Shown here piece by piece: positions 6,217 to 38,802 of a stretch of DNA of 61,665 nucleotides (positions within the stretch are counted from its first letter, which is position 1; every line of letters starts with the position of its first letter). The stretch is taken from assembly GCA_032718475.1 (NCBI GenBank), contig JAUCBJ010003888.1, forward strand, positions 1 to 61,665, in the 5' to 3' direction. Under the pieces are notes generated by a model that did no database searches, was not told where the DNA came from, and saw nothing but the letters and a program-made list of their open reading frames with translations. The stretch is from Nemertoderma westbladi. Its lineage: Eukaryota; Animalia; Xenacoelomorpha. Position numbers and translations under genes: made by a program.

Positions 6217-6244
6217 ATTCGTCGGGGTATCTTTAAAATATGAA

Positions 6245-6381
6245 ATGAATATAAACGTTCTAGAATTGTGTTGTAGTTGGAAACAATATTTAAATAAACT
6301 TAGTACACTTATAATATCGGTTAAAATACACAATAAAAAAAAATTAAAATGGTGACCCACTCCACAGTGGTCCATTTAGTA
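6245..6381. repeat. Direct duplicate of the Merlin right end plus TSD
   Basis: Identical to 7602-7737 apart from one A in an A-run; includes the TIR and ATTTAGTA. Confidence 0.9.
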
Positions 6382-7729: not shown

Positions 7730-8586
7730 ATTTAGTAAATACGATAAACTCTAGAACTTTAATAAAAGGGTTGCGCGAGCGATGCACCAGTGCCCCAATG
7801 TTCTAAATTAGTTATTAATTTATCGAGGGTCAACATTCGGTAAATATAGCGGTAGAATAGGGTATGACTCATTCACACAGATCTGGGTTTACTGTGATAT
7901 TATTACGTCTTTGTCGGTTATTATTTAATTTGTTTATTTAATTGTAGTGTTTGTCTGTGTAGTATTGGTGTTTACACTATTGTAGTATTAATGTCATAAT
8001 TAAGGGTTGATGGTATTAAGCTATTAATAAATAACATAATAAAGATTTACGTGATCTTGTGACTTAAACTAAGTTTACTCATCCCTTGGGAGAGAGCCAC
8101 AAAATGGACCGCGACCGTTGCCGTAATGCTCATTATTACAGTGACTTGAATGGATTTATATGGATGTGATATTGTATTAATCAATATCGAGCATGTTGGT
8201 TCTTGAAGTTTCAAGCCAACTAATTGACATCTCTTACTGTACTCTGGCAATTGACAAGAAGTGGGAGTGGTAATTAAGACTCGGCATTCAAGTTTGATTG
8301 GGCCGTCATAATACAGTAAGACCAAGCTTTGTTATTGTCATGCGCCATGTTTAATAATGACTATTGCGGTTTATTATAATTTTGTTTGTTACTCCCTTTG
8401 TACTCGGGTTATACAAGAAGTGGCGGGCCGTCTCCAGAATTTACCCAGAGTTTGGTTTAACCGAAATAAAGGATATGGATTCCGCATTCAATTGTATTTT
8501 CACCGTCATGATACAGTTAAAGGCTTTTGGTTGGCTGCGCGTCATGTTTAATAATGACTTATCGCAACATGTTATTGAAGTTGGGT

Positions 8587-8999: not shown

Positions 9000-11900
9000 C
9001 AAGACTTGACTTCTTGCTTGCCGTAGCTTCCAAGATTCTTCTTGTGCGACTTCTAGCAGGCAAGTTGTTTTGTAGGCCATCCACTCTGACGCGTATTTCT
9101 ACTATCGTTCTCCATCCACATGCGTGGAACGAGGTCTCGAGCCTGCAATATAACTGGGCTGCTGAATCCTAGGGCGTCGAAATAAGCGCTGAGTATGCTT
9201 AGGTAAACGCGTTTGGTTCGAGTATTACCCTCTCTCAACCCCACTCCAGACACCACAATGTCACTTTCCACAAGCCGGCAAAGACTTAATGTCTTAGTTT
9301 CAGGCGGATTGTCATTATTTAAGTCAAGCTCACTATCGCCACGCTCAGTGGGGGGTATGGCCTTTAGAAACTCGCGAGAATTGCTAGTGAATTTCGTCAA
9401 GCGAAATCCTCCAAGTTTCAGGCAGTTAACTGTCCCTTGGGCAATGTCTATGGCTTCCTTTACTGTCGGGGCTGGTTTCGAGTCGCCGTCTATGTAAATA
9501 TCCCGTTGGATATTATTTACGACCGGAGGTGGGAATTCATCCCTATGGTCATCAGCCGTCCGATGTAGTCGTAAGTCGGGTGTTGTATTGAATATGTTAC
9601 ATGATTCCAATTGGGTGGCATGCAACTTTTGGTCAGCCATGTCACTATCCATTTGGTCGGGAGTCGTTAGCGTGTCCTCCTCAGTGACTATTGTTTCATT
9701 GCATAAGTGTGTCACTAGACTGCAAGTGTTGGCGTCTGTTTGTTGTCAGTCTGTAGGTCCCTTCCGTTCTAACATGGTCCTTTTTGAAGGGCCGGTATAG
9801 AACCATCCTACTCTCGTCCGACAGGCATAGGCCGATATTGGTTTTGGATATCTAGGTCGTTTTTCTAGAATTTCTAAAGCCTCGGGAACGTTCTGACCTA
9901 TCAACATCTGTACGCCTGGATAGTCTGGCGTAAAACGAGGAATGTTATGGGTGTGCACAAGAGTGTCATCGTCCCAGTCGTGAGCCCTGGCCTGACTTTT
10001 TGCAAAGTTACGGATGACAACCATCTTGATATTAGAGAACATGTCTCGACCACTGGTGTCCTGTGGAGTAGATAGGGAAGCCTTGTAATATTTCGTCTCA
10101 ATTGTCGATGGTTACAACGATGTTACTTCCCGCATGGAGTCGGACTTGAAGCACTGGAAACTCTCGATCTCCGACATCGTGAAATGGCTGAGCGCTGGAA
10201 TCGCTCTCTACCTTAAAGCAATCGTCCGGTGTAGATTCCTCGTAGGTAAAGGCCTCATATACACTGATGTGGTTACAGCACTCGTCGTCGTCAGAAAACT
10301 CACCGGGGAGGAATGCATCTGGTCCCTCGTCAGATGAGTCTGTCTCATAGTCGGTAAAATGTACACGTTGGTCTGGTTCCTCCTTAGGGGCCCGGTCTAG
10401 GTGCAACAAAGGGTGATGGGATCCTTGGCACACTGGACACGTTTTTACATTTACTAATCTACACTTGCGTCGAAAATGTCCTGGTCTGAGACACAAAAAG
10501 CATATTGACAAGTCTAAAACTGTCTGTCGTCTCTCCTTTAGTGTTTTCTTTAAGAAGGTATTGCATTTCGCAAGCGGATGTGAATCTGTTTTACAAAGAG
10601 GGCACTTAGGGTCGGTGTTGCTAGCCGTTATTGTGTTATAAGCTTTCGTGGCTGATTTTTGACTATCCGCATGTCCTTTCTTTAGGGAATTAGCAGACTT
10701 GGAGGGAGGAGTCCTCCGGTTAAATTTACCTTGACTACTGTGTTTGTTTTCATTTTGGGAATTTGCATCACTATAGTATATACTCTCGCATCCCTTGGTG
10801 TCTGTACCAGAGTGATGAGAGGGGCACTCCTCATAATTTGTGACATAGGCATACCGCCTTTTGGTTGCCTCTTTATCGGTGCCCTTTGCGTCAGAATGGG
10901 TGCTCTTTTCCTGGTTCATTGTGATGAGATAAGTAGAGGTTTCGGCCTTTAAGAAACTCCTGAACGAGTCCATATCTTTGAAGCATCCATGCTTAAGCTT
11001 AAAATTGTAAGTGTACCTATCCCATCTAATACCCGTGGAGCCCTTTGGCAATGCACTGGAAACAAACTGAACCATCACAATAGTATCATATACTTGTTTC
11101 TGTCCAAGCCAATCAAGTTGGCGACAGATTTCCTCCACCTCATCTCTAAACTCTACGATCCCATTTTGAGTGGATCTATTTTTAGAGATCAATCTGTCAT
11201 ACATATTACGTGCCAAACTTTCTTCTTTCCATACCGCTCCGTTAAGGTATCCCAAACAGTATTAATGCCGTCTACATGGCCAACATATTTTGCGGCCATC
11301 TGTTTTGGGGGTCCCTCCAGACAGCTTATTAAGTATCTAAGCTTTTCACGTTCACTTAATGGAGACTCGAGAATACTATCCGTACAGAATTCTGCAAAGG
11401 GTAGCCACTTCAGTTCGTCGCCATCAAATTTTAAAATTTGAACTGAGGAGACGCACTGTGGGGCTTCATTCCTAGCCATGTCTGGTTGGGTCGGCTTGTA
11501 CTGCCGAAGAGTTTAACAGAATTTCAGTTAAGTGTGAGCTTTGGTCGTTCTGATATGCCGTGTTTTCAGCATGAATGCCACTCACATCTAAGGCACATTT
11601 TAGGATTTTCACACCTTGTGACGCTGCTTGCGGGTCTGCTTTCCTATTTGTTATTGTGATATGGTCTTGCATTAAGGCTATTTGTTGTTCTAAGTTAGCA
11701 GTCCTTAATGCTAGAGACTCGTTTTCATGAGACAAGGAATCATTTCTTTGTAACAAAGAATCAATGATTTCTCGTGAGTCATCATTGTCCAGGGGTCTGG
11801 GTTGTGTGACTTCTGGCACACGACTGTGAGTGTTATGTAGGTTGGGGTCTAATAGGAGTGCATAGGCCTCTGGAGGTGTAATAGAGTCACCTTGGGGAAA

Positions 11901-13949
11901 CACCTCAATTGGAGTGTCTGGCGCAAACCTGACACCACCTTTGGGGTAAGTCCTTCCCTGCCTGTTATTTGGGACTGACACCCTTCCGCCGGATGACAAC
12001 GGCATTCCTGGCCCCGGATGCCAGGTCCCCACTACCACCGGCGCATTTGCGGCCAAGTGGGTCGATTCGGGAGCCAGGTGCCTTCCATCCGGTAGGTTTT
12101 GCTGGCTGTAATGAATCGTTGAGCGAGGATTTATCTCCGCTTTGGTTATTGAGGTGTTGAATGACACCCTTTCATCCCTTGTCTTAGCTAAAGTTCTAGA
12201 CAGGTAGTTAGGCTTGGGGGGTTCTGGGCAATCCATACGAGGAATATGGTTCGAGATGGGGCCTATTGGTGGTATAATATCTCTATCGCGGTAAGGGGTT
12301 GCTGCTGTGGTTGAGTGTGGAACTACTACTGGGTTAATCGGCTCAGCTGATACACCACTCGCTGGGGGTGCTACCATCTGAGATGGCTTCCGTTCCCGCG
12401 GATCTATATAGATCTTAAACCCAGGATCGTTTGGATCATCTTCCTCCTGTAACCTACCCATGGGGGGCCGCGAATCCAGCGGTCTCAGATGGTTTAAATC
12501 AGTCGGCTCTGGGGGTATCCTGTCTCTATTGTGTGGAGGCAGGTCCGGCAATGCCACTCCAACAGCTCTCTTTCGTCTGCACCGAGAGTAGCTACCACCC
12601 ACACTAGCGTCAGTGGAGTTTCCTTCATCCGACAAAGCATAAGTCCCTCTATTCGGTCTATCTTGTCCTCGGTTTGAACCTAACCTTTCCTTGCGCTGAT
12701 TTTCACTTAATCTCTTTAGCGCTATTTGGTTTTGCAAAGCTGATTCCTTCTGATCAGCTTCCAACTGTAATCTATTACGTCGTTGACTCGCATTTAATTG
12801 CAATTCCATTTCTAATATTTCCTTATCAGCTGCGTGCCCTTCTGCCTGCGCTTGCATGTCACGCTCGGCTTCTATTCCTTCTAGAACTGCCATTGATTCA
12901 GGGCTAGAGGGGGCTAAACCCTTTAACCTCCTACGTAGTTCAGCCTCTCCTGCTGTAGCTATGTAATGTTGTAGGTGTCGTGATATGGCGTCCATTCCTT
13001 CATCTTCGCCGGAACCTTCCGAGTCTGTGCGCAAGTCTCGTAGTGCTACTGTACCGTAACAAGCCACGTCCATACCCGGGGAATGGTCGGCCCATGTAAT
13101 CTTTCAAGAGCGAGTGCCTTCCCGGCTATCACAGCTATTCTTCTAACTGCCTGCCGACTATGGCAGCTAATTTGGTGTCATGATATCTACTAGACACTTC
13201 CCAGAAGGCAGACAAGACTAGTCGGATTCTGCAGACTAGTTCCATGACTTTAAAGTATGCAGCTGGGTTAGTTCTAGGGTCAGGCTGTACAGTCTGCAAC
13301 TCATGCGTAGGGGTTCCTATGTGCTGATTAAATTCTGTCACTTGATCATAAACCAACGCGGATAGTTCTCCCGTGCTGCATGGGACTTGTGGAACCTTTA
13401 GCTTATATAATTCCGCCCACGCCATGTCATTAAACTGGAAGAACCTATGAAGCTCCAGGTGATTATAATGTAAGCTTATTAGATGGTGCAATTCCTCCCC
13501 ATAGACTTCCTGTTCAGCAGCTACAGCTCCAGTTGCTATTCTTTCCTGGTAACTGTCGATCTCCTCCAACAGGCGAGCTAGTCTAGCCTGTGGGTGAACA
13601 GGGACGGTCTCGTCCGCAATGTTCTGAGAAAGGGTATTGTCGCTCAGGGGATGTAATTCCTCATTGCTGTTAGGTGAGGGGGCGAACATATGGGGGATGT
13701 GTTCATAACTAACAGTGATGGTGAACTTACTCCAACTTGTACAGGGCTAGTTGTAAGTGGTTCTATGTTGGCGTTATTCACAATCCCTCCAGTAAACTGC
13801 TTAGTTCTTATACGGGACCTGTCCCAAGATTTCTTGCTAGGGATGGGTGGCACAACTGGGTTAATCGTAGGAGGAATTTCAGTAATAGGGACAGTTATAG
13901 CTGGTGGACTTCGAGCAAATGGCTCGGTCTCAGTGTCCGATCTTGACAT
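9000..13949 (-). pseudogene. BEL/Pao gag-pol of el1 (frameshifted, internally deleted)
   Basis: KFDGDELKWLPF, BEL-type triple zinc cluster CPLCKTDSHPLAKC/CFLCLRPGHFRRKC/CPVCQGSHHPLLH, REFPVLQV, and RT fragment GGFRLTKFTSNS. RNase H and most of IN are missing; the IN C-terminal remnant CLLE..GSYGKQ lies near 9010-9065. Confidence 0.9.
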
Positions 13950-19913: not shown

Positions 19914-21091
19914 GACAGCGCGGCGACTGAAAGGGAGTGGTGGGCCAGCTGGCAGCGACTCAACACGCTGGCGGGACTACCTTATCCGGTATGGGTCACA
20001 TAGCCAGCGTCTACGCGAATCTATTGCCTCTATTGCGTGTTCACTTGCCAACAGTGTAGTGCCATGGGAATCAGTTCGGTCGCTGATGGCTAGCAGACTT
20101 ATTGCCCTCGATAAGTGCCCCGGGGTTAGGCCCATAGGCATAGGGGAGTGCCTCCGCCGAATCTTGGCAGAAGCAACTGGAGATGATGTCACCACTACGT
20201 GTGGCGCAGAGCAGTTATCTGCGGGCGTGATGGCAGGTGTGGAGGCCGGGGTACATTCAATGCACTCGGTCTTCGTGGATGGGGCATTATTATGGTTGAT
20301 GCAGCTAATGCCTTCAACTCGCTGAACCGAGTCGCAGCCTTGTGGAACGTCAGGCAGCTGTGGCCTCGATGTTCAATGTTTCTCTTCAACTGTTACCGTG
20401 GACACAGCATTCTGACAATAAAGGGAACCGATGCTGTGCTGTTCAGCGAAGAGGGTGTAACACAAGGAGATCCTTTAGCTATGCCTTTTTACGCTTCAGG
20501 CATCCTCCCTTTAATCCACGAGTTGCCATCACTTAAGGTTCACCAAAGTTGGTTCGCTGACGACTCTTCTGGTGCCGGAAAGCTCCAGGATATTCTCGAG
20601 TGGTACGAGCACTTACTTCGTCTGGGCCCCGCTCTCGGATATTACCCTCAGTCCGCCAAGAGCTTTCTCGTTGTGGCTCCAGAGTTTCTGGAGGAAGCCC
20701 AAAGTGTATTCGCCGAGCACAATATTAACATCGTTACAGGACACCGATTTCTGGGCGGGTTTATTGGTAGCAAGTCGGAGTGTGTGAAGTATGTCGGCGC
20801 CAAAATCGCATCCTGGGTAGCCTCAGTTGACAAGATGGCCGAGGTGGCGGAGGCCCAACCCCACGCTGCTTTCTCAGCCGTAGTTTGCTCACTCCAACGG
20901 GAGTGGGCATACCTCCAACGCGTTGTCCCAGACTGCAGCAGTCAGTTCGATGTGCTAGAGGAAGCGATCAGCGATAGGTTCCTGCCGGCAGTCTTCGATG
21001 GGCGAATTTCGCAACCAGAACTCAAGTTGTTTGCCCTGTCTCCGCGAATGGGTGGTCTGGGGTTGCGGAACCCGGTTAACGAGGCCGATAC
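19914..21091 (+). mobile_element. CRE-like RLE non-LTR retrotransposon, part 1 (RT; 5'-truncated)
   Basis: RPIGIGECLRRI, VDAANAFNSLNR, GVTQGDPLAMPFY and WFADD; one frameshift near 20280; left TSD ATTATATT at 19906-19913. Confidence 0.9.
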
Positions 21092-22353
21092 TGTAAAAGC
21101 TTCTGTGGGATATAACTGGCCCTTTTGCTTCGCAATCCAGTTTCCCCCCCAGGCGCTGGAATACTCTAAAAGGTTCTCTAACTGTATATATATTCCCCTC
21201 GCCCGCAAGGTACTGTTACAGGTGTTTTAACGGACATAAAAGTCATTCTTCTATATACGTGTTTTGGCGGACATGGTAAGGCAAAAAACCTGCAATGCAC
21301 CAAATACCTTTCACAGCTTAGCCGTGATGATTCATATTACGACATCTAACAGCTGGTTGCTGACATGGAAACAGCCATTGGCCACATGGTTCTTTGTTTA
21401 GCTTAAGCCAATCAGAGCGATTTTTTCTGTCGATGTGGAGCTTTTCGGCCGATCATACTAGGAGTGTTCAGTCTTACTGTTTTTTGTGATACTGTTGTGT
21501 TATTGCTATCTAGGCCAGGAACAACGGCTCTAGAGTCAATTCGTTTCATACTTTAGAAGAAACATTAGTAGGCTTAAGATTATAGAGCGTATAACTGTTA
21601 TCAGTCCAACTCACTTGTCACAACATATCATTCATATCATATCTTAACCTACCGTCTTAATGCTTTTACTGTTGTCATATTTTGTATTAGTTGGTCGAAT
21701 ATTATTTGGAGAACATATATAAAGAACCCAAATTTCCCAATTTTCTTGATACACTACAGGTTAGAGAGACGGGTTATATATAGCGATTGCGACTTATATT
21801 GTTGTGGTTTGTAGTGAATTTAATGCTATTTGGTAAGCACTACATGATTCGTTGCTGTTCTCTTTATATATGATAAAATTCATTGACGGTCGGCAAATTA
21901 GTGAGCAGTATTGTGTGTTACCGGTAGTGTGCATGATTGTGACTGATAACTAAGCATTTCCTAAAGAATGCGCCTCATACGTGAATCATAAGCCTTACCG
22001 ACTTACCGTTGTGATTAGTATAAGTCATATCTCTGTTTACCTAGATAGAGCGCCACGTCCTAAAGGAACTGTTAATATTTCCCGAAAGTGAATAATATTG
22101 GTCAGAAATTAATTATTAACGATCAATCGAATAATACAATCCAGTAAGCTTACACTGCAATAATAATCTAAGCCCTCAGAATCCAGTCTCCCGGGTATAT
22201 CCAGCGGGTGAATGGACGCGCACTAGGCTGGCTTCTGCTAATGTTGTGTTTATTGGTATTAAATATTTGTCATCTTCTAAAGTATATTTATAAACCAAAA
22301 GACATATAAATTTTGGCAGGTTAAACTGCTAAAGGTCTTCAAAAGCGCGTACA
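21092..22353 (+). repeat. el2 5' LTR
   Basis: Direct repeat of 37536-38797; four substitutions seen by eye. Confidence 0.97.
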
Positions 22354-22364
22354 ATAACAGTTAT
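22354..22364 (+). promoter_or_regulatory. Non-tRNA primer-binding site of el2 (complementary to LTR 21591-21601)
   Basis: ATAACAGTTAT directly follows the LTR. It has no TGG start and is the reverse complement of ATAACTGTTAT at 21591-21601. Confidence 0.75.
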
Positions 22365-22418
22365 TGACTTTATTGCAGTAAGCAATAAAGTTGAAAGTAC
22401 CGGTCAACCGGTAAACCT

Positions 22419-22546
22419 GAACCGGTACTTCTGTAGGTCAGTAGGCCCAACTGCCAGAACCGGTACTGCTGTAGGTCCGTAGGTCCAACTGTCAGAACCG
22501 GTACTTCTGTAGGTCCGTAGGCCCAACTGTCCTAACCGGTACTTCC
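22419..22546 (+). repeat. 38-bp tandem repeat x3.4 in the el2 leader
   Basis: Unit GAACCGGTACTTCTGTAGGTCCGTAGGCCCAACTGTCA; homologous array at 40907-41032. Confidence 0.85.
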
Positions 22547-22724
22547 AGTATAAGTACATTAGTATTATTCGATTTTGATTATTGTATACCGGTAGGTCTC
22601 GATATTAAATCGGGGACGCCTGGTTTTTATTGGGATTTTACTTAGGTCTATTAGGTTAGCTTACTAACTTAGGTTTTATTTCCTAGTAAGTTAATATTGA
22701 GCTGAAGACGTGTAAGTCTGCTCA

Positions 22725-23300
22725 GATTGTTCAGATAACTGTAGGCCGGACTGTTGTCGGATTGTTGTTGGGTTTGGAGAGATTACTGCGTGTGTAGAGT
22801 TTGTCCGATAGAGCGCCAGTTAGTAAGTTGGGGCAGCCATAGCTGTAAGGTCAATCCCCTCTTAAAGAATAAGTCGTACTACCGTGTTAGAACGCATACT
22901 AACTAACAATTTTGGAATCTGCACATACTGTAGTTTATTTAGGCTTGACAGTATTCTGCCAGCGTTTTGGCCTGTGTTTGTTTGTGCGGTCTGTTCAGGT
23001 ACCGTAATAGTTATTACTCAGATATTTTGTAGGCTGGATTGTTGTCTAGCTATTATTAGGTCTGAAGAGATTGCTGCGTGTGTAGAGTTTGTCTGATAAA
23101 GTGCCAGTTAGTAAGTTGGGGCAGCCATAGCTGTAAGGTCAATCCCCTCTTAAAGAATAAGTCGTACTACCGTGTTAGAACGCATACTAACTAACCATTT
23201 CAGAATCTACACGTACGGTAGTTTATTTAGGCTTGGTGGTAGTCTGCCAGCGTTTTGGTTTGTATTTGTTTGAGTATTCTGTACGGGTAGCGTAATATTT
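22725..23300 (+). repeat. ~288-bp tandem duplication in the el2 leader
   Basis: GCCAGTTAGTAAGTTGGGGCAGCC... at 22815 and 23103. Confidence 0.9.
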
Positions 23301-24598
23301 ATTATTCAGAGTTTATGCGATTATTCGCAACATTCATGTCCCCAAGTTTATTCCTACAGTAATTGTGTTTGTTACACAGACCGTTATAGTTAAATTAACC
23401 CCGGTACTACACGGGCTGCTTGGCGTAGGACAAGACTGGTGACTTTGTGCTTCGGTCACTCCAGCAGATGCTGTGGTTCTTTTAACTGTTCAAGTATATT
23501 TAACTACTGATTATTTGTTGTACCAGTACTTGTACCTAATTTAGGGTTTAGTGTACAGTGCTTTCCGAGGTAATTAGTGTGTAGGCAGTATATTTGTGTT
23601 GTAAAGTGGTTAATAGGCACGCTGGATCTGGTAGTCCGCGGTAATTAACTTCTAGGTAGGAACACTCCGTGATACATAACGTAGTACCTATAGCGATACG
23701 GTTATAGGTTGTCAGGCGGTGGTATTTTCCTATCTGGACAGTGCAATATATTTACTACTACTTATTATTTTCAAATACCGTAGTACCCTGTCCGTTGTAA
23801 TAACCAGAATTCTAACCCTTTGTTAGACTGGTTTGTAGAATTCCTGTAAAATTACCCTAAAAATTCGTACGTAATATTTTTGTTGTGTTTAATTAGAGAA
23901 TTAATCTCACCCGTATCGTAAGTAATTTGTAGTATTAAGTAACTTAGGTAAATTAGAATTATCAGTTTTAGTGTCAAATAAATAGCACTTCACTGAGAGC
24001 GCACAGCTTCTGTGTAGTGACCCCCCCAGAAATAATAACATTTATTTCAAATATTGACAAAACCCATTTTAAACGGGTATATATCTATTATAAATCAACT
24101 CAAACGATTTATAAATAGTAGGCCTGCCATACAACAACTAGGTCTCAAAATCAGTTGGACTACTGCTTAATAACGGTAACAAAGTAAGTTAAAGTAACCA
24201 AGTAACCCTAAAATATTCAGAAATTCAATTATTTTAAAATAATTGACATACCGGTATTTACCATAGGCTTATTATATTTATTTCTATAAATTTGAGCTGA
24301 AATCATACCGGTACTCTGTAATTAATTCTAGTTCATAATTATACTTATATATACTATAAGTGTAAGCTGTATACCGGTATTCACGATAGGCCTATTATAT
24401 ATTTATATATTTGTGCTAAAATCATATACCGGTACTCTGTGACAAACCTAGTTTACAATACTTATATATACTATAAGTGTATACCGGTATTCTAATATAC
24501 TGTAATAAATTACCGGTACTAGGCCAACGGTCATACTGAATTACTAGACTTGCTTTAACTGTAACTATAGCAGTAAGCATTCAACTGTATAGCTAAAC

Positions 24599-27500
24599 AT
24601 GTCTGACACTCAGCAAAACCTGTCAGACAGTCTAATCGATACAACCATCTGTGACACAGATAGGAGTGTGGAGCGATTAAGAAAGGAGTTCAGCTCACCT
24701 CCTACTGAAAGAAAGGTCATCCCTCCAGTAGTAGTATCAGACCCTAAGCTAATCCAACACCGTAGGTCTATCATCGGCACTCGGGCCCAAGTCAAACGGA
24801 ACCAGGAAGCAGCTGTCTCACAGCAGCAACAGCCTAGTCAAGAAACTTGTTCCCAGCGATCCGATAGCTCCAGTAATTCGGATACTGTCGAGCTGACCCC
24901 CGAACGCGGATTACAGATGGCGGCTAAAGCCTACTCGGACCCCCTTCTCACCCTTCCTGCCGCAGTGCTAACAACTATATTGATTGCGGTGGAGGAACAT
25001 CAAGCCGATTGGGTGAGAAATAAGCGAGCGACCCAAGATAATTATGCGGGATACGCCAGAGAAGAATTGATGTCTATTGTCGAGTCACAATGGAACTTTC
25101 CCGGACCCGGACTCCCGTTAGATCTGTCCGAGGCTACTTGGGAAGATATACACAGGATGGGAGTGGCTAAAGATACGATGGATCCAGCTGTTTGGAAGAG
25201 GTCGGCAGCAGGATATGTGCAGGGATTCTTCGGCTCCTTAGAGCGATTAGAAGAACAACTGTTTCGACAACCCCAAGGACCTCAAGAGCAGGAAGAACTG
25301 CTATATCAAGTACGCGAAAGAACCCTACGCATTCGACTAATCCTATCAGCTTTTGAGGAAACTTCCAAAAGAAGACAGGACACGTCGCTGCAGGTTTCTG
25401 TTAAGACTTGGTTCCAGCGGGTAGGTCTCAAAGTGCAAAAAACGGACCAGTGGAAATCCCAGCTGTCTGAGAGACTAACTTATGAAGAACCAACCGATGC
25501 CACCCTTTCTCAAGTGGAAGGCGAAGAGACCGCAGAGAAACCACGAACGAGAGACGCCATAGACATTTATCTGTCCGACTATCAGCGATTCCTAGGAGAC
25601 GAAGAGTTGAGGAGACGGCTGTCTGGACTTTCCCCTAATAGTGAAGGAACCCAGCGTGTGTTAGACTCAATCGATGCTGAAATGTTAGCTGCTAACCAAG
25701 CAGAATTTGATGAAAAACTCCGCCTCGCTAGAGTCCAAGAAGAACAAGTAAAGAAAAGACGGATAGAGGAACAAAAGGCGGCGGCTATGGCAGAAGCAGA
25801 AGCAGAAAGAAAGGCAGCGGCGGCAGAAGCAGAAGCAGAAAGAAAGGCAGCGGCGGCAGAAGCAGAAGCAGAAAGAAAAGCAGCAAAGGCAGCAGCGGCA
25901 GAAGCAGAAGCAGAAAGAAAGGCAGCGGCGGCAGAAGCAGAAGCAGAAAGAAAAGCAGCAAAGGCAGCAGCGGCAGAAGCAGAAGCAGAAAGAAAGGCAG
26001 CGGCGGCAGAAGCAAAGGCGGAAAGGGCAGTGGCAGAAGCAGAACGGAGAGCGTCTGAGCAGACTACCCAACTGGAGTTGGAAAATCTGCAAGAGACGCA
26101 AGACAACATAAATAAACAGTTAACTGCTAGTCAAATGCAGATGATGAGACGATCTACTCCCAAACGCCAGGGATACACATCATCGGAGGAAAGCGAAACC
26201 ACCGATCCTGAAGGCGGAGGAAATAGATCTCGTCTAAGCAGGCGTAGAAAAACATCTCACCGTCACAAATTGCCTGATTTGCCCCCAGCTGTTAGAAGAC
26301 AGCTAGCTAGCGCAGACTTAGGTAGTACGGAACCCATATACCAAACTATTCAGGTCAAAAGACTCCCTACAATAGTTGATGAGCCTGAAATAATTAGGCC
26401 TGTCGTTCCCAAAGTCACACCTGTGCTAGAAACCCCTGTACTTCCAGAGCTTAACTCTAAGTTCCCTTTACACAGTACTACACTGCCTGTACCCGGTAGA
26501 ACAGTCCATGAGAATATTCCTGTCCTGGAAGCTGAGAGAGAAATCAAAGATTTGTCTCCCGTCGTCCCACGTCAGCCCGCTACAATGTTGGCGACTCCCG
26601 CTTCGGCGGTCGAGTGGGTAGAAGAGGGACGGCGGGGGATGAATCTCTTGCTCAGACAGATGCAGGAGACTGTCTACCAACTTAAGGGAACAGTAAGGGA
26701 AAGTAGGGCCGAATTGCAAGAAGTGCAGCAAAGTATCGCGCTAGAACGCGACAAATTAGTCAATATCCAAAAGGGAATACCAATACCCCCTGTAAAATTG
26801 TGTCAACCTGTTAGGTCTGAAGTAGTACATGCGCAAGGTGTGGAGCCTACACGCATCTATACTGCTAGTGAAGTAGAAACTCCTATAGCAAACCCTATTA
26901 AGGGTGATTATAGACCTGTTATTAATGATATCCCTTATAGACCTGACAATGATCCGAGAAATTTATATACCGATAATTCGATATTAAATAACACGATGGC
27001 CCAAGAAAGCTTTACGCGTCAGATGGCTAGAACAGAAGCCCGCCAAGCGGTCAAAGTGGGAGAGATCGTCAAATTCAATGGAGATGAGATGAAATGGTTA
27101 CCTTTCAACGAATATTACAAAGATAGCATACAAAACTCTGTACTATCTAACGGAGAGAAACTTAGGTTCCTCATCAAGTGCTTGGAAGGACCTCCCAGGT
27201 TAATGGCGTTAAAGTTTATTGGACATCCAGATGGATTAAGACAAGTTTGGGATACATTAAACATCAGGTATGGTAACAAGGATAACATAGCTAAGTATTT
27301 GTATGCAAAATTAGTAGCCCCCCGACACTTCCTTAGTAGCGGGATTATAGAGTTTTCCGATGAAATTCAGGAGATCTGTAGACAATTGGACTGGTTAGGT
27401 AAGTCTCATGAATATCAGAGTTCCATGGTTATTGGAGCCATAGTCTCTACTTTACCAAAGGGTGGAGTATGTACACGCTGGGACAAGAAAGTGTTGTACA

Positions 27501-28360
27501 TGAATGAACAACAACGACGAAGTCCTACCATGGCTGATCTCATGTCCTTCTTAGATGGTGAGGTAAAACTACAACTCATCAAGCAGTCCAGAGAGAAAAC
27601 ATCGGAAAATAAGGTAAGTGAGAAACCCGCTTCTAGGAGAAGAGTAACACCGGTGTGTTACACTGACGACGGCGAAAGCCAAGCTTCTCAAGAAGAGGAC
27701 AGCGGGAAAGACACTGAGAGATCTTACTACGTTGACAAAACCTCAAAAGATGTAAGTAAATACAAGGCTCGAAACAACGATAGGAGAGAACAGGTTGCCA
27801 AGACCCCCCCTCAGTCTCCTAACAGAATGCACCGAAGAAAACCCGAAGAAAAAACGAGAGTGCATCAAGTTACCCAAGGTAAAGAGAGTAACATAAAACC
27901 TAACTGTGCGTTGTGCGACGGGACCCACCGTTTGAGTGCGTGTGCTGAATTTCTAAAGAAATCCCTTGTAGACAGACGTGCAGTCGTATGGGACAAGCGG
28001 TTATGCTATAATTGCCTCAGACCAGGACACCAACGGCGAACCTGTTACTCCGATATAAAGTGTGCAAAGTGTGGCGCGAAACATCACATCTTGTTACACA
28101 GTGAGTTCGAACGAGACAAACTGAGTCAGGTAAGTGAGCCCGAACTACATGTCCAATTCAGTGATGTAAACGACACTGATCAAGAATCTGAGATGGAAGG
28201 ATTCTATACTGACGAATTCTCCGACGCCAACGAATCCTGTTATCTAATCAATACCGCAGTGTATCGAGCACTTACTTATGAAAAGGACACCAACGATGAG
28301 TTTTCCCCAACTACTTTTGCCAAACAACCATCTTGGAAAGCTCCAACTTCCAACGTATGA
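24599..28360 (+). CDS. BEL/Pao Gag (1253 aa) of el2
   Basis: KFNGDEMKWLPF capsid-region motif, three BEL zinc knuckles, and an (AEAEAERKAAA)n repeat. Ends at an in-frame TGA where el3 has GGA. Confidence 0.92.
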   Translation: MSDTQQNLSDSLIDTTICDTDRSVERLRKEFSSPPTERKVIPPVVVSDPKLIQHRRSIIGTRAQVKRNQEAAVSQQQQPSQETCSQRSDSSSNSDTVELTPERGLQMAAKAYSDPLLTLPAAVLTTILIAVEEHQADWVRNKRATQDNYAGYAREELMSIVESQWNFPGPGLPLDLSEATWEDIHRMGVAKDTMDPAVWKRSAAGYVQGFFGSLERLEEQLFRQPQGPQEQEELLYQVRERTLRIRLILSAFEETSKRRQDTSLQVSVKTWFQRVGLKVQKTDQWKSQLSERLTYEEPTDATLSQVEGEETAEKPRTRDAIDIYLSDYQRFLGDEELRRRLSGLSPNSEGTQRVLDSIDAEMLAANQAEFDEKLRLARVQEEQVKKRRIEEQKAAAMAEAEAERKAAAAEAEAERKAAAAEAEAERKAAKAAAAEAEAERKAAAAEAEAERKAAKAAAAEAEAERKAAAAEAKAERAVAEAERRASEQTTQLELENLQETQDNINKQLTASQMQMMRRSTPKRQGYTSSEESETTDPEGGGNRSRLSRRRKTSHRHKLPDLPPAVRRQLASADLGSTEPIYQTIQVKRLPTIVDEPEIIRPVVPKVTPVLETPVLPELNSKFPLHSTTLPVPGRTVHENIPVLEAEREIKDLSPVVPRQPATMLATPASAVEWVEEGRRGMNLLLRQMQETVYQLKGTVRESRAELQEVQQSIALERDKLVNIQKGIPIPPVKLCQPVRSEVVHAQGVEPTRIYTASEVETPIANPIKGDYRPVINDIPYRPDNDPRNLYTDNSILNNTMAQESFTRQMARTEARQAVKVGEIVKFNGDEMKWLPFNEYYKDSIQNSVLSNGEKLRFLIKCLEGPPRLMALKFIGHPDGLRQVWDTLNIRYGNKDNIAKYLYAKLVAPRHFLSSGIIEFSDEIQEICRQLDWLGKSHEYQSSMVIGAIVSTLPKGGVCTRWDKKVLYMNEQQRRSPTMADLMSFLDGEVKLQLIKQSREKTSENKVSEKPASRRRVTPVCYTDDGESQASQEEDSGKDTERSYYVDKTSKDVSKYKARNNDRREQVAKTPPQSPNRMHRRKPEEKTRVHQVTQGKESNIKPNCALCDGTHRLSACAEFLKKSLVDRRAVVWDKRLCYNCLRPGHQRRTCYSDIKCAKCGAKHHILLHSEFERDKLSQVSEPELHVQFSDVNDTDQESEMEGFYTDEFSDANESCYLINTAVYRALTYEKDTNDEFSPTTFAKQPSWKAPTSNV

Positions 28361-28378
28361 ATCAGAGAATTTCCTGTA

Positions 28379-31300
28379 GTGCAGGTAAGAGTGCACGGGC
28401 TTAACAAAAGTTACATAGTGAACGCCCTCCTTGACTCCGGCAGCGCAGGAACATTCATCGATCAAGAACTAGCCGAAGATATCTTTGCTGGACAACCCAA
28501 GTTCCGGACTAAATTGAATATGTCAGGAATTATGCAGGTTTGGAAATCTACCCTAACGGCAGATTACTATGTAGGTGTGTTGTCCACCCCCCAGGATAAG
28601 TTAGGAGCACAGGGTATAAGGTCGGTAAAAATGGTGGCTATAAAGAACTTCGCTACTACTCAAGCAGACCTTTATAATTGGGACGAGGATGAGAGCATCC
28701 AACATCTTAAGATACCTCGATTCCAGACAGATTATCCTGGAGTGCAAATACTCATCGGCCAAAACGCGCATGAAGCGCTCGAAACATTGGAGAAACGGCC
28801 TGCTCAACCACAACCACTGCAAACCTATGCGGTAAGAACTAGAGTAGGTTGGTACTTTACTGGCCCTTCCCGCAGGACTCTCGCAGAGAGAATGCCACAA
28901 GAACAAACATACCAAGTAAACGATTGGGAAGTGGAGAGCAGTGAGGTGGACGAACTAACTGAGGGAATACCATACTCCTCAGATAATGACGACATCTACC
29001 AACTCTTCGATGAAGAGAACACAATCGACCTACTTACAGAAAACCAAACTTGGAAAAATCAGGTGAACCTATGTCAACTGATTCGCCCATCGGAACCCAT
29101 CGCTTACAATGACGAACTAAATGATGAGATAGAACGCTACAACGCTAGAACTCGGGATGAACTAGCCGTACGATTCTTTACTCAGGAACTGGTAGAGCCC
29201 AATTCATATGATAAGGCTCTATCGATAGAAGAAGAAAGAGCCAAGCAAATCCAGGAAACAACTACACGTTTTTTAAAAGACCAAGGTAGATATGAAATCG
29301 GCCTACCATTTCGAAAACGAGAACCTAGATTTATAAATAACAGACCTTTGGCAGAGAAAAGAATCACTCAATTACATCGACGACTTACAGCTAATGCTTC
29401 AGCGAAAGAAATGTACCAAACTCAGCTGAAGAAATTTATAACAAAGGGATACGCGGAGCGAGTACCGGAAGGAACACCAGTGACTGAGAGAACGTATTAC
29501 TTAACACATCATTACGTTCCCAAACCCGGTAAACCACACGAAGTACGAGTCGTATTCGATGGCTCCGCCCTATATATGGGCCAATCCCTCAATTCCGAGT
29601 TGTTACCAGGACCCAACTTACTCCAATCTTTGTTGGGAATACTTTTAAGATTAAGACAATATTCCATCGCGTTCGCCTCAGATATAGAAGGAATGTTCTT
29701 ACAAGTCAAGGCGCTGGATAGAGATAGAGACAGCCTGAGATTTCTGTGGTGGCCTGAAGGAGACCTCAATCAGAAACCGGTAGAATACTGGATGACCATC
29801 CAGGCTTTTGGAATCATATCAAGCCCTTCCAACGCCTGCTCCGTGGTGCGAACCACTGCGAATGACAACCGAGACTCCTTCTCAAAAGAAGTGATAGACA
29901 ACATAAAACGCAATATATACATGGATGATAATTTAAGGTCCCTTCCATCAGTAGAAGAAGCCATAGCTGTCGCGAAAGGAACGGTAGAGTGTTTGAAAAG
30001 AGGTGGATTTCGACTGACGAAATTCACTAGCAACTCCCGTGAGTTTCTGGAAGCCATACCGGTAGAAGACCGAGGAACGAAAGACCTAGACTTAATAAAG
30101 GACGATCTTCCTGAAACCAAGACGCTAGGCTTGAAGTGGGACACTGAAAGAGACATCCTGTTTTTTCAGTTAAAACAGCGAGATAATCCAGTTCGGACCA
30201 AACGGATTTGTTTAAGCATCCTGAGCACTTATTTCGACCCATTGGGATTTATTAGCCCAGTTATATTGATTGCTCGGAGTTTAGTACAACAAATGTGGCT
30301 TGAAAACCACTCATGGGACGATCCGCTTAAGGGGGAATTGTTAAAGAAATGGATGAAATGGGAAGATTCTCTACCTGCCATCGAGAACTTTATAATTTCC
30401 CGTACCTATTTTGGCCATGTTCTTCCTACGTATTCCTATCAACTCCATGTGTTTGGAGATGCCAGCGACATGGGAATAGGTATAGTAGCATATCTGCGAG
30501 TCGAAACTCCGGATGGAATCAAAGTCGCCTTGGTTACCTCTAAGGCATTGATTAACAACAAGTTAAAGATTCCTCGAGCGGAGTTAAAGGCGGCTTTATA
30601 CGCTACAGCCATCGGCCGGAACGTAACGGAACAAATCGACTATCCACTGGAGAAAACGGTTTATTGGACCGACGCTTTACTCGTGTTGGAGTATCTAACC
30701 AATGAAGTCTGTCAGTTCAGCGTTTTTGTTACTAACAGAGTAGCTATTATTCTTAGTCGCACAAAGATAGATCAATGGAGACATTGCCCTGGTACGATTA
30801 ATCCAGCCGATATCGCCTCCAGGGGAGCAACTCCACAGGAACTGATAGATACTCCAGATTGGTTGGGTGGACCCGACTTCCTGAGCAAGGAAGAGGATGA
30901 ATGGCCTCCTCACCTTACTACGGCAGAGATTAGACAAGCCAAGGGAGCGGAGACAGTCAAACCTAAAACCCGGGCGAGTAAATCGAAGTTATTTAAACCG
31001 ACTATCGATATATCTGTATTACATACTTCCGGGAATGATGCTTCGGATCCACAATCCCTCAACACAAATAAGTCTGTTATGGAAATTAGAGATAGAGATT
31101 GGAAATCTGGAATACCAGACGTCTCGCAAGGAATCTCACCCATGCTGCAGAGAGCAATGCATCATTACAGTTCCTGGAATCGGCTTTGTAAAGCCGTCAC
31201 ATATTTAAGACGATGTTTTCATCATCACTACTCCAGGACGAAGACCACTAGTGATCACGCTCCATTGACATCTGCACAAGTTCATGTTATTAAGAATTTA

Positions 31301-32209
31301 CCCAAATATAAGACATCTGATCGTTTTCTAAAGGAGAAAATTAGTCACCAGGAGCATGAAGAAACAAATAAGCAGATACTGAGACTCCTGCAATGCTATG
31401 AGGATTCCGAAAAGTATTTCCTGTTGTTGAGAAATCCGCAGATGCGCTTAAGGGATCGATTCTCGAGCACAATGATAGATGGGTTAATACGTGTTGGAGG
31501 AAGACTCACCAATGCGCCCTTATCCTTTGACACCAAATTCCCCATACTTATTAGAAATCTTGAAGTACAAATCAAGATGATTGTAGACGTTCACGGTAAA
31601 CTTTATCATGCTGGTAGAGAACGAATTCTTAGCGAAATTCGAACTCGCTATTATTTTGATAAACCCCGTAGAGCTCTGAACCAAGTTCTTAGGAACTGCA
31701 TACCCTGTAGGAAAGCATTCAGTAGGCCTTTAACACAGCGAGAGGCAGAATTACCTAGGGAACGAGTAAGCTTCTATGAACCACCTTTTACTAATACTGG
31801 TGTAGATTTATTTGGCCCTATTGAAGTATATCGTGCTAGGACTATAGTCAAGAGATGGTGTGTCATCTTCGTGTGCATGACTTGTAGAGCCATCCATCTC
31901 GATATGGTGAACGATCTATCTACCAACAGCTTCGTCTTAAGTTTACGACGACAGATCGCTCGCTTCGGGACGAGTAATACCATGAGATCGGATAAGGGAA
32001 CGAACTTCATTGGTGCCAACAACAAAATACAGGCTTATGTGAAGGACTGGAACCAAAGACAGGTGGACGACCAGCTAAGGATAACAGCGTCTAGCTGGAC
32101 CTTCAACGCCGCCGACGCCCCTTGGTGGGGAGGAAGTTGGGAGAGATTAATTCGAAGTGTCAAAACCGCATTTCACTTTATAGTGCCGACGAACTTTTGC
32201 GGACGTTAA
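28379..32209 (+). CDS. BEL/Pao Pol (PR-RT-RNase H-IN) of el2, in frame with Gag
   Basis: LLDSGS protease, YMDD RT, LHVFGDASD RNase H, IN H-H-C-C, GVDLFGP, SDKGTNF and GGSWERL. Confidence 0.95.
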   Translation: MQVRVHGLNKSYIVNALLDSGSAGTFIDQELAEDIFAGQPKFRTKLNMSGIMQVWKSTLTADYYVGVLSTPQDKLGAQGIRSVKMVAIKNFATTQADLYNWDEDESIQHLKIPRFQTDYPGVQILIGQNAHEALETLEKRPAQPQPLQTYAVRTRVGWYFTGPSRRTLAERMPQEQTYQVNDWEVESSEVDELTEGIPYSSDNDDIYQLFDEENTIDLLTENQTWKNQVNLCQLIRPSEPIAYNDELNDEIERYNARTRDELAVRFFTQELVEPNSYDKALSIEEERAKQIQETTTRFLKDQGRYEIGLPFRKREPRFINNRPLAEKRITQLHRRLTANASAKEMYQTQLKKFITKGYAERVPEGTPVTERTYYLTHHYVPKPGKPHEVRVVFDGSALYMGQSLNSELLPGPNLLQSLLGILLRLRQYSIAFASDIEGMFLQVKALDRDRDSLRFLWWPEGDLNQKPVEYWMTIQAFGIISSPSNACSVVRTTANDNRDSFSKEVIDNIKRNIYMDDNLRSLPSVEEAIAVAKGTVECLKRGGFRLTKFTSNSREFLEAIPVEDRGTKDLDLIKDDLPETKTLGLKWDTERDILFFQLKQRDNPVRTKRICLSILSTYFDPLGFISPVILIARSLVQQMWLENHSWDDPLKGELLKKWMKWEDSLPAIENFIISRTYFGHVLPTYSYQLHVFGDASDMGIGIVAYLRVETPDGIKVALVTSKALINNKLKIPRAELKAALYATAIGRNVTEQIDYPLEKTVYWTDALLVLEYLTNEVCQFSVFVTNRVAIILSRTKIDQWRHCPGTINPADIASRGATPQELIDTPDWLGGPDFLSKEEDEWPPHLTTAEIRQAKGAETVKPKTRASKSKLFKPTIDISVLHTSGNDASDPQSLNTNKSVMEIRDRDWKSGIPDVSQGISPMLQRAMHHYSSWNRLCKAVTYLRRCFHHHYSRTKTTSDHAPLTSAQVHVIKNLPKYKTSDRFLKEKISHQEHEETNKQILRLLQCYEDSEKYFLLLRNPQMRLRDRFSSTMIDGLIRVGGRLTNAPLSFDTKFPILIRNLEVQIKMIVDVHGKLYHAGRERILSEIRTRYYFDKPRRALNQVLRNCIPCRKAFSRPLTQREAELPRERVSFYEPPFTNTGVDLFGPIEVYRARTIVKRWCVIFVCMTCRAIHLDMVNDLSTNSFVLSLRRQIARFGTSNTMRSDKGTNFIGANNKIQAYVKDWNQRQVDDQLRITASSWTFNAADAPWWGGSWERLIRSVKTAFHFIVPTNFCGR

Positions 32210-32784
32210 TGGAGGAAATAGCTGCCTACCTCAACGAGAGACCGCTTATGCCAGTCTCATCGAGTCCCGATTCCCTGGAAGCGCTAACACCCGCGCATTT
32301 CCTACTGAAGAAACCTGTAGCCATGCTCCCACGATCGGAGATTGCCGACGGAGACGAATACTGCCGTCGAACTTGGCAACTTATGCAGTTGCTATCCCGT
32401 CGTTTCGCTGACCATTTCGAGAAACATTATCTGCCCACGCTACAACTTCGAACTAAGTGGTTTGCGCAGCAAGAAAACGTCAGCGCCGGAGATATGGTGC
32501 TTATTGTAGATCCAGACCTCCCACGTAAACGGTGGCAGACAGGTCGTATCATCGAGACCCACATCTCAGATGATGGTTTAGTACGCTCGGTAGAACTCAT
32601 CGTCATGCGGCGTAACTTCAAGAAGCCAGGCATAATCTTTGAGACGCAACAACTCAATCGCCCAGTTGGTCGTTTATGTTTACTGGAAAGAGACAGAGAA
32701 CTCTCTGGAAACTATGGAAGGCAGGACACTCTTCCCACGACCACCTCCCTAATTCCTCAAACATCTAGGGACTCCCTAACGTGA
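32122..32784 (+). pseudogene. Integrase C-terminal part of el2 after a frameshift
   Basis: LNERPL, LTPAHFL, YLPTLQLRTKW, GDMVLI and DGLVRSV are BEL IN C-terminal motifs; the frame break is near 32185. Confidence 0.9.
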
Positions 32785-34212
32785 TATGTCTGGAGTGGGT
32801 GTATGACTATATTCTTTTATCTATTTTATTATATTTTTATATGCGAACTTTATTATGTACTTTATTATAATCGTTTTTATTCAATTTTATTTAGTAAAAT
32901 GTTATTTAGTGATTATTTAGTAGATTAGTGCAATATATTAGTGTTTATTACGTACGTAATTACTTATAATATATTTAGTGCGACGGCGAGAAATAATTAT
33001 TTTTTCTCTTTCCTTACTGTCCGTATCATATTGTAAATACGTGACTACAGTAAGATGAAATGTCCGTACTTAGTAAAGTACAATAAAGCCACTACTATAT
33101 TCAAGTATTATTGGTAGGCAGAGTATTAGGAATGCAAAGTTCAGATCCTCGTGTCTTGGCTAAACCAAGCTCTGGGTAGACCTTGGAAACGACTTGCCTC
33201 TTCACACTGACATTGCTTCGTGCGATATTGCTCTTCTACCTTATATTAAATAATACATATAGTAGCGTGATGTCCATATAACAGTAGCGTAAAACGCAAA
33301 TAAATCTGTTAAACCTTTTGACCATCTGTAATTCTAGTCGATTAAGATATCGCGGCACCCACCGATATACTTGAAAGACAAATTCTAGAATCAGTGGTTA
33401 ACGTCCCCAGACAAGTTCTGGAATAAATCGGTGCCCATCTTAAATATTAATTTAATATTTATTAAAATCTGTAAAATTCAGATCCTTTAAATTTCTAGTC
33501 AATTAAGATATCGCAGCACTTACCGATACTCTTAAAAGACAATTTCCATAGAATTAAGGATCCTATGTCCCCAGACCTGCTCTGGAATCAAATTGTGTCA
33601 ATTTTAACATCAAATAATAAAATTCACGGGAATAAATTTAAATTCATATTTTAAATGAATTTCATAAATTGTCATTTTGTACAATTTATAACATTCCCAA
33701 AATTCCATTAATTAATAGATCATGGGAGCGGAGATTCATCCTATTGAGTGTATTAGAGTGCGAGAATCTCCAACATATAGTCAATAGCCGATAAAATTAA
33801 TAAAATCATGCATAAAGAGGATATTGACAATTAAAGAATTATTATTAAATAGCATCCCAGATCTGTATGCATGAGAATTACCCTAATTCTACCGCTAGCA
33901 TTCCATAATGTCACCATAGCAACACCCACGCTAGAATTAGAAGCAAGTTAAAAGAACAATAGAAAGCTTGTCCCATTGCGTAGCATAGAGAATATATAGC
34001 ACACTGTTAGTATCCAAGGATACACAGTAATAACGTGACATTCTGGAAGGCACTGACTAACGGACAAATGGCCTGTATGTGTACAATTGGTGACAGTTGT
34101 GTGGAATTTGTGCGTTTATAGGTGAATGTTACTGCTAAAGTATGTTTACAGTAGCTAGTCGCAATTGTAAAAGTAGCCCAACTCTCCTATAGAAAGAACC
34201 TAAGTGGATCCA

Positions 34213-34366
34213 AGCCTTTGGGACGGACAGTGGAGTGACTTGTGCCGGTTATCGTTGTCGTGCTGTTGCTACATGTTGGCGTAAACACCGCGACGACGGT
34301 ACATCGGCACTGAGAATCCCACTGTCCGGGGGCAAAGAGAAGTAGGCAGCGACGCCCGCTCGCCTA
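34213..34366 (+). other. Conserved structured RNA upstream of el2 ORF3
   Basis: Nested stems GGACAGTGG/CCACTGTCC, GTGCCG/CGGCAC and TATCGTTGTCG/CGACGACGGTA, then hairpin TAGGC-AGCG/CGCT-C-GCCTA. Covaries with 48785-48941. Confidence 0.8.
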
Positions 34367-34409
34367 AAATATAAACTTATTTGGATATTAATAAACTCAG
34401 ATAGCAGAT

Positions 34410-34826
34410 ATGACGGAGTTGATAGAAGATGATCTTGGTATTAGGGAGCAATATACTCTACCTTTACAAGCATTTGTGGATAGCTTAATATGCGGTGAAG
34501 CCGATCCAACCATTACGGAGGACGATGGTCGTTATATCGAACCGCCGATGTCCCAAGAGCAACTTGCGCGTGAATTGGACTATCGAAAATTCACCACTCG
34601 CTATACGAATCGTAATGGTACGTATATGGACTTCTTAACTACCGGCCATCCTATCGATTTGCATGATACGGACGATGTAGATACAGAAAGGGAAATGGTT
34701 CTATTTAAATATCATACCCAGCGGAGTCGTAACGATAAACCGAGAATGGAAGAATGGAACGCGAGAATTCTATTCGAAAATAACTCGAAAGATAGAACGT
34801 GGAAGAAAGTTTGTAAAGACAAATAG
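34410..34826 (+). CDS. ORF3 N-terminal segment of el2 (unknown function)
   Basis: Homologous to el1 5963-5553 and el3 48986-49291. Confidence 0.7.
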   Translation: MTELIEDDLGIREQYTLPLQAFVDSLICGEADPTITEDDGRYIEPPMSQEQLARELDYRKFTTRYTNRNGTYMDFLTTGHPIDLHDTDDVDTEREMVLFKYHTQRSRNDKPRMEEWNARILFENNSKDRTWKKVCKDK

Positions 34827-35681
34827 AGGAGAACACTGGAGAAGAGACATGGGTTAATGTCCAGGGTCCATGATGTGAATAGTTTTTCCCCGGGGCACGG
34901 GTGCTCGCGGGCGGTCTCCTTCGGGAGGCTGTAATTTCTCTTCCTTCATCGTTTTCCTGTAATTATTGTGATCAGTGTCACAATTAAAGGGCAAGAATGA
35001 ATGATGATGTGACGGAAACATGTCCATTGTGGTATCTTATGGATACTACCATATATCCCCCCTCCTCTTTACTCCCTTTATCCCTCTATACATCGCTATT
35101 GAAAATACAACATACTTCGTCCCACCTTCTCTTTCCAATGTGCTCGGAGCTTTGGGAGACGATCGACCAATCATTGCCGTATCGTGGTATGGATCATACC
35201 GCCTCCTAATAAATCCCCCACCCCTTACTGTTTATTTGTATGCTCATATTGGTGTCCGCACCTCTCGTCCATGTCACATTCCACATTCTGTTGATGTTTA
35301 TGATATCAACTTCCACCCTCGCGTTGTTGATTAGAAAATCAACCACCAATAATTTCCTTAAGTCCGCAACCGTGATACAAACAAGGACTGAAAGGACACG
35401 AGGATAGTTTGTGAACAACTGGTACCATTATGTGTCATAAATCTGGTTGTTCACCTCCCTCAATGATTGGAGATATAAATCTTATGTAGAACAACTGAGA
35501 CAAACATATCCTTGAACTGGTATTTACCTCCTCGCTAGGGATAAATTCATTTAGAGATAGTCTTCGAACGATTGAATCCTCCTACTGAAGTCGTCTTTCT
35601 GAATATTTCTGAATACGATATAGGTCTTCCTCTGCTCTCGATCATCAATGGCGGAAAACATATTAGTCATCCTATGGGAAC

Positions 35682-37457: not shown

Positions 37458-37526
37458 CTGTTTAGAGTATTTACGTATATTAGAAACTGTGATTTTGTAT
37501 ATTTTATAGACTCAAATCCCATTTTC

Positions 37527-37535
37527 TGGGAGCGG
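37527..37535 (+). promoter_or_regulatory. Polypurine tract of el2
   Basis: TGGGAGCGG abuts the 3' LTR; identical in el3 (50388-50396). Confidence 0.65.
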
Positions 37536-38797: not shown

Positions 38798-38802
38798 GAT
38801 AC

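Follow-up and report, generated by a model that had tools for sequence, protein, structure and literature searches.

A candidate self-primer in the LTR of two BEL/Pao retrotransposons of Nemertoderma westbladi

How could an LTR retrotransposon begin minus-strand DNA synthesis if the sequence adjoining its 5' LTR does not have the form of a tRNA-end primer binding site (PBS)? This question is raised by two elements, el2 and el3, in the window analysed here, a stretch of 61,665 nucleotides from Nemertoderma westbladi (contig JAUCBJ010003888.1). Positions of el2 and el3 are those of the window, and the features of both elements are on the forward strand. The whole of el2 (21092-38797, 17.7 kb) is bounded by a 5' LTR (21092-22353; TG...CA, 1262 bp) and a 3' LTR (37536-38797) with 4 differences from it, and by the target site duplication (TSD) GATAC/GATAC. 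In el3 (39589-51647, 12.1 kb) the 5' LTR (39589-40839, 1251 bp) and the 3' LTR (50397-51647) have 1 difference, and the TSD is GACTG/GACCG. Since the LTR pairs differ by only 4 and 1 bp and have TSDs, both are seen as young insertions. A purine-rich tract precedes the 3' LTR of el2 (37528-37535) and is identical in el3.

The gag frame of el2 (24593-28360) carries DUF1759 and a triple Cys-His motif. It is followed by a frame for protease, reverse transcriptase (RT, with YMDD), RNase H (Peptidase_A17) and integrase (28361-32209), and the integrase C-terminus (DUF5641) is in a shifted frame at 32095-32784, the shift lying close to the end of integrase. The gag frame is closed by an in-frame stop before pol. 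Pfam identified DUF1759, Peptidase_A17 (1e-36), Integrase_H2C2 and DUF5641, in the order Gag-PR-RT-RH-IN; the RVT_1 score is below the Pfam cut-off, and there is no Pfam match in el2 to a chromodomain, a protein trait of the Ty3/gypsy chromoviruses. Peptidase_A17 (PF05380) is in 120 out of 120 matches listed for the RT-RH region of el2 (36-44% identity), and the closest named ones among the matches listed belong to cnidarians, echinoderms, a nemertean, and fishes. An additional ORF of 596 aa with two Cys-His motifs (35667-37457) has no Pfam or Atlas match; its remnant in el3 is the last 39 aa only. The gag-pro frames are retained in el3 (43180-47332), where most of the RT, RNase H, and integrase has been deleted. 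As read from these frames el3 is non-autonomous, and RT would be needed in trans. In a quick RT tree, unrooted and with long branches, el2 forms a long separate branch with el1 (9056-13746, reverse strand), a decayed third BEL/Pao element of the window that is without LTRs and is 59% identical in RT.

By their predicted proteins, el2 and el3 are BEL/Pao (Belpaoviridae). With Tas, BEL, Pao, Suzu, and Sinbad/Sailor, el2 has in common the TG...CA LTRs, 5-bp TSD, purine tract, triple Cys-His Gag, PR-RT-RH-IN order, Peptidase_A17, DUF1759, and DUF5641. It is because of the proteins that the elements are filed here, as the PBS and genome size depart from the described traits. The ICTV profile gives BEL/Pao an 18 nt PBS for tRNA-Arg or tRNA-Gly, with replication primed by host tRNA, and a genome of 4.2-10 kb, and calls replication poorly understood (PMC8742986); the original prediction likewise had the family described as tRNA-primed. 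In contrast, el2 and el3 have no tRNA-end PBS, both exceed the size range, and el2 differs from the described members in its 2.2-kb repeat-rich leader and extra ORF. The leader (22385-24592) consists in part of tandem repeats of 38 nt, 288 nt, and ~123 nt and is conserved in el3.

The PBS adjoining the 5' LTR is ATAACAGTTAT in el2 (22354-22364) and ATAACGGATATA in el3 (40840-40851). As had been predicted, neither starts with TGG. There is no TGG within 260 nt of the LTR end, the first being 268 nt (el2) and 267 nt (el3) downstream. The prediction that the PBS pairs with a site about 500 nt into its own LTR is borne out as well: 22354-22364 is the exact complement of 21591-21601 in el2, and 40840-40851 that of 40092-40103 in el3. 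These candidate self-primers are homologous sites at LTR offsets of 500 and 504, and the complement, of 11 nt in el2 and 12 nt in el3, directly abuts the terminal CA. One step past the LTR edge the pair is a C-A mismatch in both elements, therefore an annealed primer would end exactly at that edge. Such a complement was found in 82 of 20000 Markov-2 simulated LTRs for el2 and 8 of 20000 for el3, in 8 and 1 of 1000 when the null allowed offsets of 0 to 4 and spliced forms, and at 2 and 0 of 200 decoy positions, although the el2 and el3 values are not independent, given their common ancestry.

Between el2 and el3 there are two differences in each arm. Both of those in the LTR site are compensated in the PBS, as the original prediction held (A-U to U-A and U-A to C-G), and the probability of this, given 2+2 changes, is ~0.002. 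The cognate primer:PBS duplexes have energies of -10.2 (el2) and -12.7 (el3) kcal/mol against -5.8 and -2.4 kcal/mol for the crossed pairs. A G-U-rich site at 34089 in el2 scores slightly above the PBS as a partner of the primer. Cofolding was disregarded, being unable to represent a pseudoknot. The el2 primer 11-mer is AT-rich and nearly palindromic; a role for the palindrome in dimer kissing was rejected, the feature being true of el2 only. At contig level, sequencing run X1 covers the element in many variant copies, and among the 40 variants listed of 1249 there is none in the primer or PBS.

Some BEL elements of C. elegans carry their own tRNA-like primer. ARAGORN found 0 tRNA genes in the window and Rfam gave two matches in 21000-52000, both sub-threshold, so that el2 and el3 do not appear to encode a primer of this kind.

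It is probable that el2 and el3 prime minus-strand DNA in cis with a piece of their own LTR RNA instead of a tRNA. The RNA would fold three duplexes around the PBS, termed D2, D4, and D3 (or a local hairpin in place of D3), leaving the PBS as an open loop to which the LTR site could anneal as a pseudoknot. By analogy with Tf1, the RNase H of the element would cut after 21601 (40103 in el3) and RT would extend the 3' end of the primer across U5. During plus-strand synthesis the primer would be copied back into the PBS, keeping both sites matched, as the end of the tRNA primer is copied during plus-strand synthesis in retroviruses. If so, the PBS would inherit changes in the LTR site and the match would not come from selection alone; such templating of the PBS by the LTR site would mean that the site must be the primer.

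D2 pairs 22213-22221 with the U5 end at 22345-22353 (8 bp, one mismatch) in el2 and 40711-40719 with 40831-40839 in el3. Its pair probability in the el2 5' context is 0.96-0.99 and it has one compensatory change, A-U to U-A in el3. D3 pairs 22148-22163 with 22370-22383, just past the PBS (el3: 40649-40664 with 40857-40871), through 13 invariant pairs without covariation between el2 and el3. In single-strand folds a local hairpin at 22364-22394 is favoured over D3 by 4.4 (el2) and 3.5 (el3) kcal/mol. A GTAAG donor-like motif is present on the loop side of this hairpin, at 22378. D4 pairs 22125-22137 with the leader at 22562-22574 and closes the domain (el3: 40631-40643 with 41049-41061), with one one-sided change. 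RNAalifold, applied unguided to 22100-22600 and its el3 homologue, returned D2, D3, and D4 with the PBS almost unpaired, while single-strand folding (z of -5.5 and -5.6) kept D2 and D4 in both elements. The PBS is open with either D3 or the hairpin, the cost of freeing it being 1.0 (el2) and 0.6 (el3) kcal/mol. The predicted structure is therefore one in which D2 and either D3 or the hairpin flank an open PBS within D4, and docking of the primer as a pseudoknot would give it the 'pretzel' topology of Tf1.

All of the 61 named pairs hold in both elements, with 5 two-sided and 4 one-sided changes, a result matched by 15 of 500 shuffles; slid partners give 0 or 1 two-sided changes. Because el2 and el3 themselves supplied this structure, an unguided scan is the fairer test. 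Across the 1122 columns of the alignment, two helices have at least 2 compensatory changes, these being primer:PBS and a helix upstream of the primer, Hb, where the null mean is 0.007 and two such helices occurred in 0 of 150 block shuffles, all of this covariation being one comparison of two copies. Templating by a primer could not produce the changes in D2 and Hb, which point to selection on an RNA fold.

Hb pairs 21561-21569 with 22237-22245 in el2 and 40064-40072 with 40734-40742 in el3. It has two compensatory changes and one one-sided change and is weak in nested folding (0.00-0.38). Closer to the primer, the extension helix that had been proposed to lengthen the duplex (21582-21587 with 22368-22373 in el2) is present as 6-7 bp with one G-U each, adding 5-6 kcal/mol, but it shows no two-sided change and its bases are wanted by two other partners, D3 and the local hairpin. 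A further GCTTA:TAAGC arm lies beyond it (21572-21576 with 22379-22383 in el2), and with both arms the primer:PBS duplex reaches -22 and -25 kcal/mol. Another candidate helix, Ha (21548-21560 with 22273-22285), was rejected since its register is not kept in el3.

Since these conserved helices draw on bases that precede the primer, the RNA may begin further upstream than the primer does, which would be a difference from Tf1. In these models the upstream helices suggest a longer primer, or involvement of the 3' LTR copy. It is somewhat likely that a longer 5' fragment provides the primer as its 3' end, a layout for which Hb, the extension helices and the internal primers seen in the relatives described below all speak. 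A primer made up of the first 11 nt of the transcript, as in Tf1, is somewhat less likely. The proposal of tRNA-independent self-priming is supported, with the predicted pretzel duplexes and the relatives added to it, while the strict Tf1 layout may not hold.

No TATA-like motif common to el2 and el3 was found ~30 nt upstream of the primer. Near the LTR start a TATA-like CATAAAAG (21235-21242) is kept in both LTRs, as is a pyrimidine tract (21540-21556) ending in the acceptor-like TACTTTAG, in a region that is otherwise only ~50% identical. The two motifs could be those of a start site upstream and of one more intron. A candidate poly(A) signal, ATTAAA, is located at 22258-22263 and kept in el3 (40747-40752). 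Exposure of ATTAAA in the 3' LTR alone, through a switch that depends on U3, is not supported: the effect is small in el2 (0.33 to 0.53) and absent in el3.

A candidate intron (GT...AG) lies between primer and PBS, at 21760-22044 in el2 (285 nt) and 40277-40552 in el3 (276 nt), with aligned donor and acceptor motifs. In both elements it encloses a decoy complementary to the 3' end of the primer (21941-21950 in el2). Without splicing, part of the primer region is predicted to be paired elsewhere in the RNA, at a cost of 6-15 kcal/mol against a gain of 10-12 kcal/mol. When the candidate intron is taken out in the model, only 1-4 kcal/mol instead of 6-15 would be needed to free primer and PBS, a value for this one deletion. 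A primer built at the splice junction was rejected for el2 and el3, the best match of 8 nt not being above the null.

Scans for relatives gave 9 metagenome loci and 14 MAG-assembly loci with 32-49% RT identity. The BEL/Pao elements of L013, L014, L016, L017, and L019, which are in bacterial MAG assemblies, are likely to be host-animal contamination. No LTR pairs were found in the metagenome loci (L001-L009), and no relatives in the viral contigs searched. The 5' LTR end could be read in 6 of the 23 loci, the other 17 being left out of the counts; it was called by LTR pairs in four (L010, L014, L017, L019), by eye at a truncated pair in L013, and by a scan in L016. A TGG at the PBS is present in none of the six, whereas five have an 11-nt self-complement, contiguous in one and found only across an LTR splice junction in four. 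The contiguous case, L010 (6091-6430), has an LTR complement to PBS positions +5 to +15 (4 of 1000 nulls). In L017 (1001-1790) and L019 (1001-1880) the complement exists only across an LTR GT-AG junction (5 and 1 of 1000 nulls); these two differ at three junction bases, each of which is matched in the PBS. Spliced 11-nt complements were also seen, without a null, in L013 (1563-3220) and L016 (1-640). In L014 (5615-6190) the GT-AG junction complement has one mismatch and 8 perfect nt (71 of 1000 nulls), which is not significant. The spliced complement ends 0-7 nt before AATAAA in L013, L017, and L019. As these three share an assembly and two of them, L017 and L019, are closely related, the relatives represent approximately five independent lineages. 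The contiguous and spliced types are not grouped in the quick RT tree, with its long branches and no root. Beside one BEL/Pao copy there is a second LTR element, apparently on the other strand (L018:1224-5943), with 331-bp LTRs and what is presumably a half-tRNA-Met-type primer site as in copia.

The original prediction confined this trait to the lineage of el2 and el3, which is too narrow, given that five of six distant BEL/Pao relatives carry a self-complementary, non-tRNA PBS. Judged from these loci, a self-complementary PBS is probably old within BEL/Pao. It is plausible that self-priming in BEL/Pao is independent of that in Tf1, a Gypsy element. A broader reading can be put forward tentatively, with the balance somewhat against it: a large and old branch of BEL/Pao in marine animals would be tRNA-free, using an internal LTR RNA primer in a convergent pretzel, with priming gated by splicing. 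The gate, as an equally tentative part of this reading, would consist in some families of building the primer at an exon junction and in el2 and el3 of removing the decoy-bearing intron.

The alternative that best survives keeps a self-derived primer but takes it from elsewhere, either from the copy of the site in the 3' LTR (38035-38045) or from an LTR transcript of its own, short or spliced, that is packaged along with the genome; the upstream U3 sequence would then bridge 3' to 5' by forming Hb and the extension helices. Both the Hb covariation and the extended duplex do use sequence upstream of the primer, the complement in L013, L016, L017, and L019 exists only after splicing, and in three of these it is close to AATAAA. 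However, the site in el2 and el3 is contiguous and ~660 nt upstream of the sole poly(A)-like hexamer seen to be conserved in the LTR, and a cut in the genomic 3' LTR would be expected to lose the repeat for strand transfer unless R is upstream. Such a source is unlikely.

Less likely still is that the helix is regulatory, acting on primer access, translation, or packaging, while the true primer comes from the host, for example as an internal fragment of a tRNA. In its favour, the leader is rich in predicted structure and can fold in alternative ways, and the available part of PMC6317226 describes half-tRNA priming in Ty1/copia lineages. Against a host primer, the PBS letters track the LTR site both in el2/el3 and in L017/L019, the six relatives have different PBS sequences, none starting with TGG, and the helix stops at the base where the primer must end. 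The el2 and el3 PBS variants also differ by a transversion, and one RNA can pair with both variants only via inosine. That the complement is due to chance, or is the functionless relic of an old inverted duplication, is largely refuted and very improbable, since the AT-rich, nearly palindromic el2 11-mer and the 7 of 15172 internal el2 positions that also have an 11-nt complement in the LTR are set against the exact PBS position, the homologous offset, the two out of two compensated changes, the flanking duplexes, and the repetition of the pattern with other letters in the relatives.

Priming in cis from the LTR, the preferred reading, has its model in Tf1, for which self-priming with RNase H cleavage had been cited in the original prediction; the cut is between bases 11 and 12 (PMC7175516). 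The fold that Tf1 requires, as described in the accessible text of bioRxiv 2022.12.06.519325, is a pretzel of three duplexes, primer:PBS and two between PBS-adjacent and LTR sequence downstream of the primer. As far as the available accounts go, Tf1 and Tf2 of S. pombe, Tj1, Tosmo1-3, and the Tf1/sushi group have, like el2 and el3, an LTR-adjoining PBS complementary to 11 nt of their own LTR, and the flanking duplexes of Tf1/sushi have predicted counterparts in D2 and D3. The differences are clear. The BEL/Pao proteins, without a chromodomain match, place el2 and el3 in another superfamily; the LTR is 1.26 kb long, with ~750 nt between its primer site and the PBS; there is a covarying helix upstream of the primer and a candidate intron between primer and PBS; and these elements are known from sequence alone. 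According to the original prediction, the PBS of Tf1 would also start ATAAC. On the reading preferred here, el2 and el3 are elements that would work like Tf1 but are not members of Tf1/sushi.

The available parts of PMC6317226 and PMC4600332 describe self-priming for Tf1/sushi and give it as a prediction for Tcn1 and the TAR copia elements; its demonstration is limited in these sources to a Gypsy element, with some Copia lineages as predicted cases. For the TAR elements (Houba, Osr-1) of Ty1/copia and for Tcn1, the prediction is made, as for el2 and el3, from PBS-LTR complementarity (PMC6317226, in part), but these have Copia or chromovirus proteins and, as far as that text goes, plant hosts. 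In agreement with the original prediction, no report of self-priming in BEL/Pao was found in the literature searched, although an earlier remark is possible in Repbase, GyDB, or the full ICTV report. A term search found no mention of PBS or tRNA in the Sinbad paper (PMC554778), the survey of metazoan BEL/Pao (PMC3118150), PMC11117352, or PMC8556966, and self-priming is not tied to BEL/Pao in the portions available of PMC2864245, PMC5341516, PMC5443660, PMC3601003, and PMC9094657.

If true, the BEL/Pao case would extend self-priming to the third superfamily of LTR elements, a very different element having arrived at the same three-duplex topology, and would bear on whether tRNA-priming or self-priming is the ancestral state. 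It would explain the failure of PBS finders on many BEL/Pao elements, and such elements would escape control by 3' tRNA fragments.

Elsewhere in the window there are further features. The elements el2 and el3 are 790 bp apart, apparently inside one older coding element (20187-21091, 38798-39588, and after 51648), the frames of which look by eye like those of a non-LTR RT and a restriction-like endonuclease; no Pfam support was found for these frames. An IS1595/Merlin-type DDE transposase ORF (6510-7616, reverse strand) is located at 6230-7737 between 154-bp direct repeats and short inverted repeats. Dense nested inverted repeats at 53289-53814 are fold-back-like. At 56743-57936, on the reverse strand, there is an uninterrupted frame of 397 aa with four LIM domains, Zasp/PDLIM-like, with its best match (44%) in a hemichordate.
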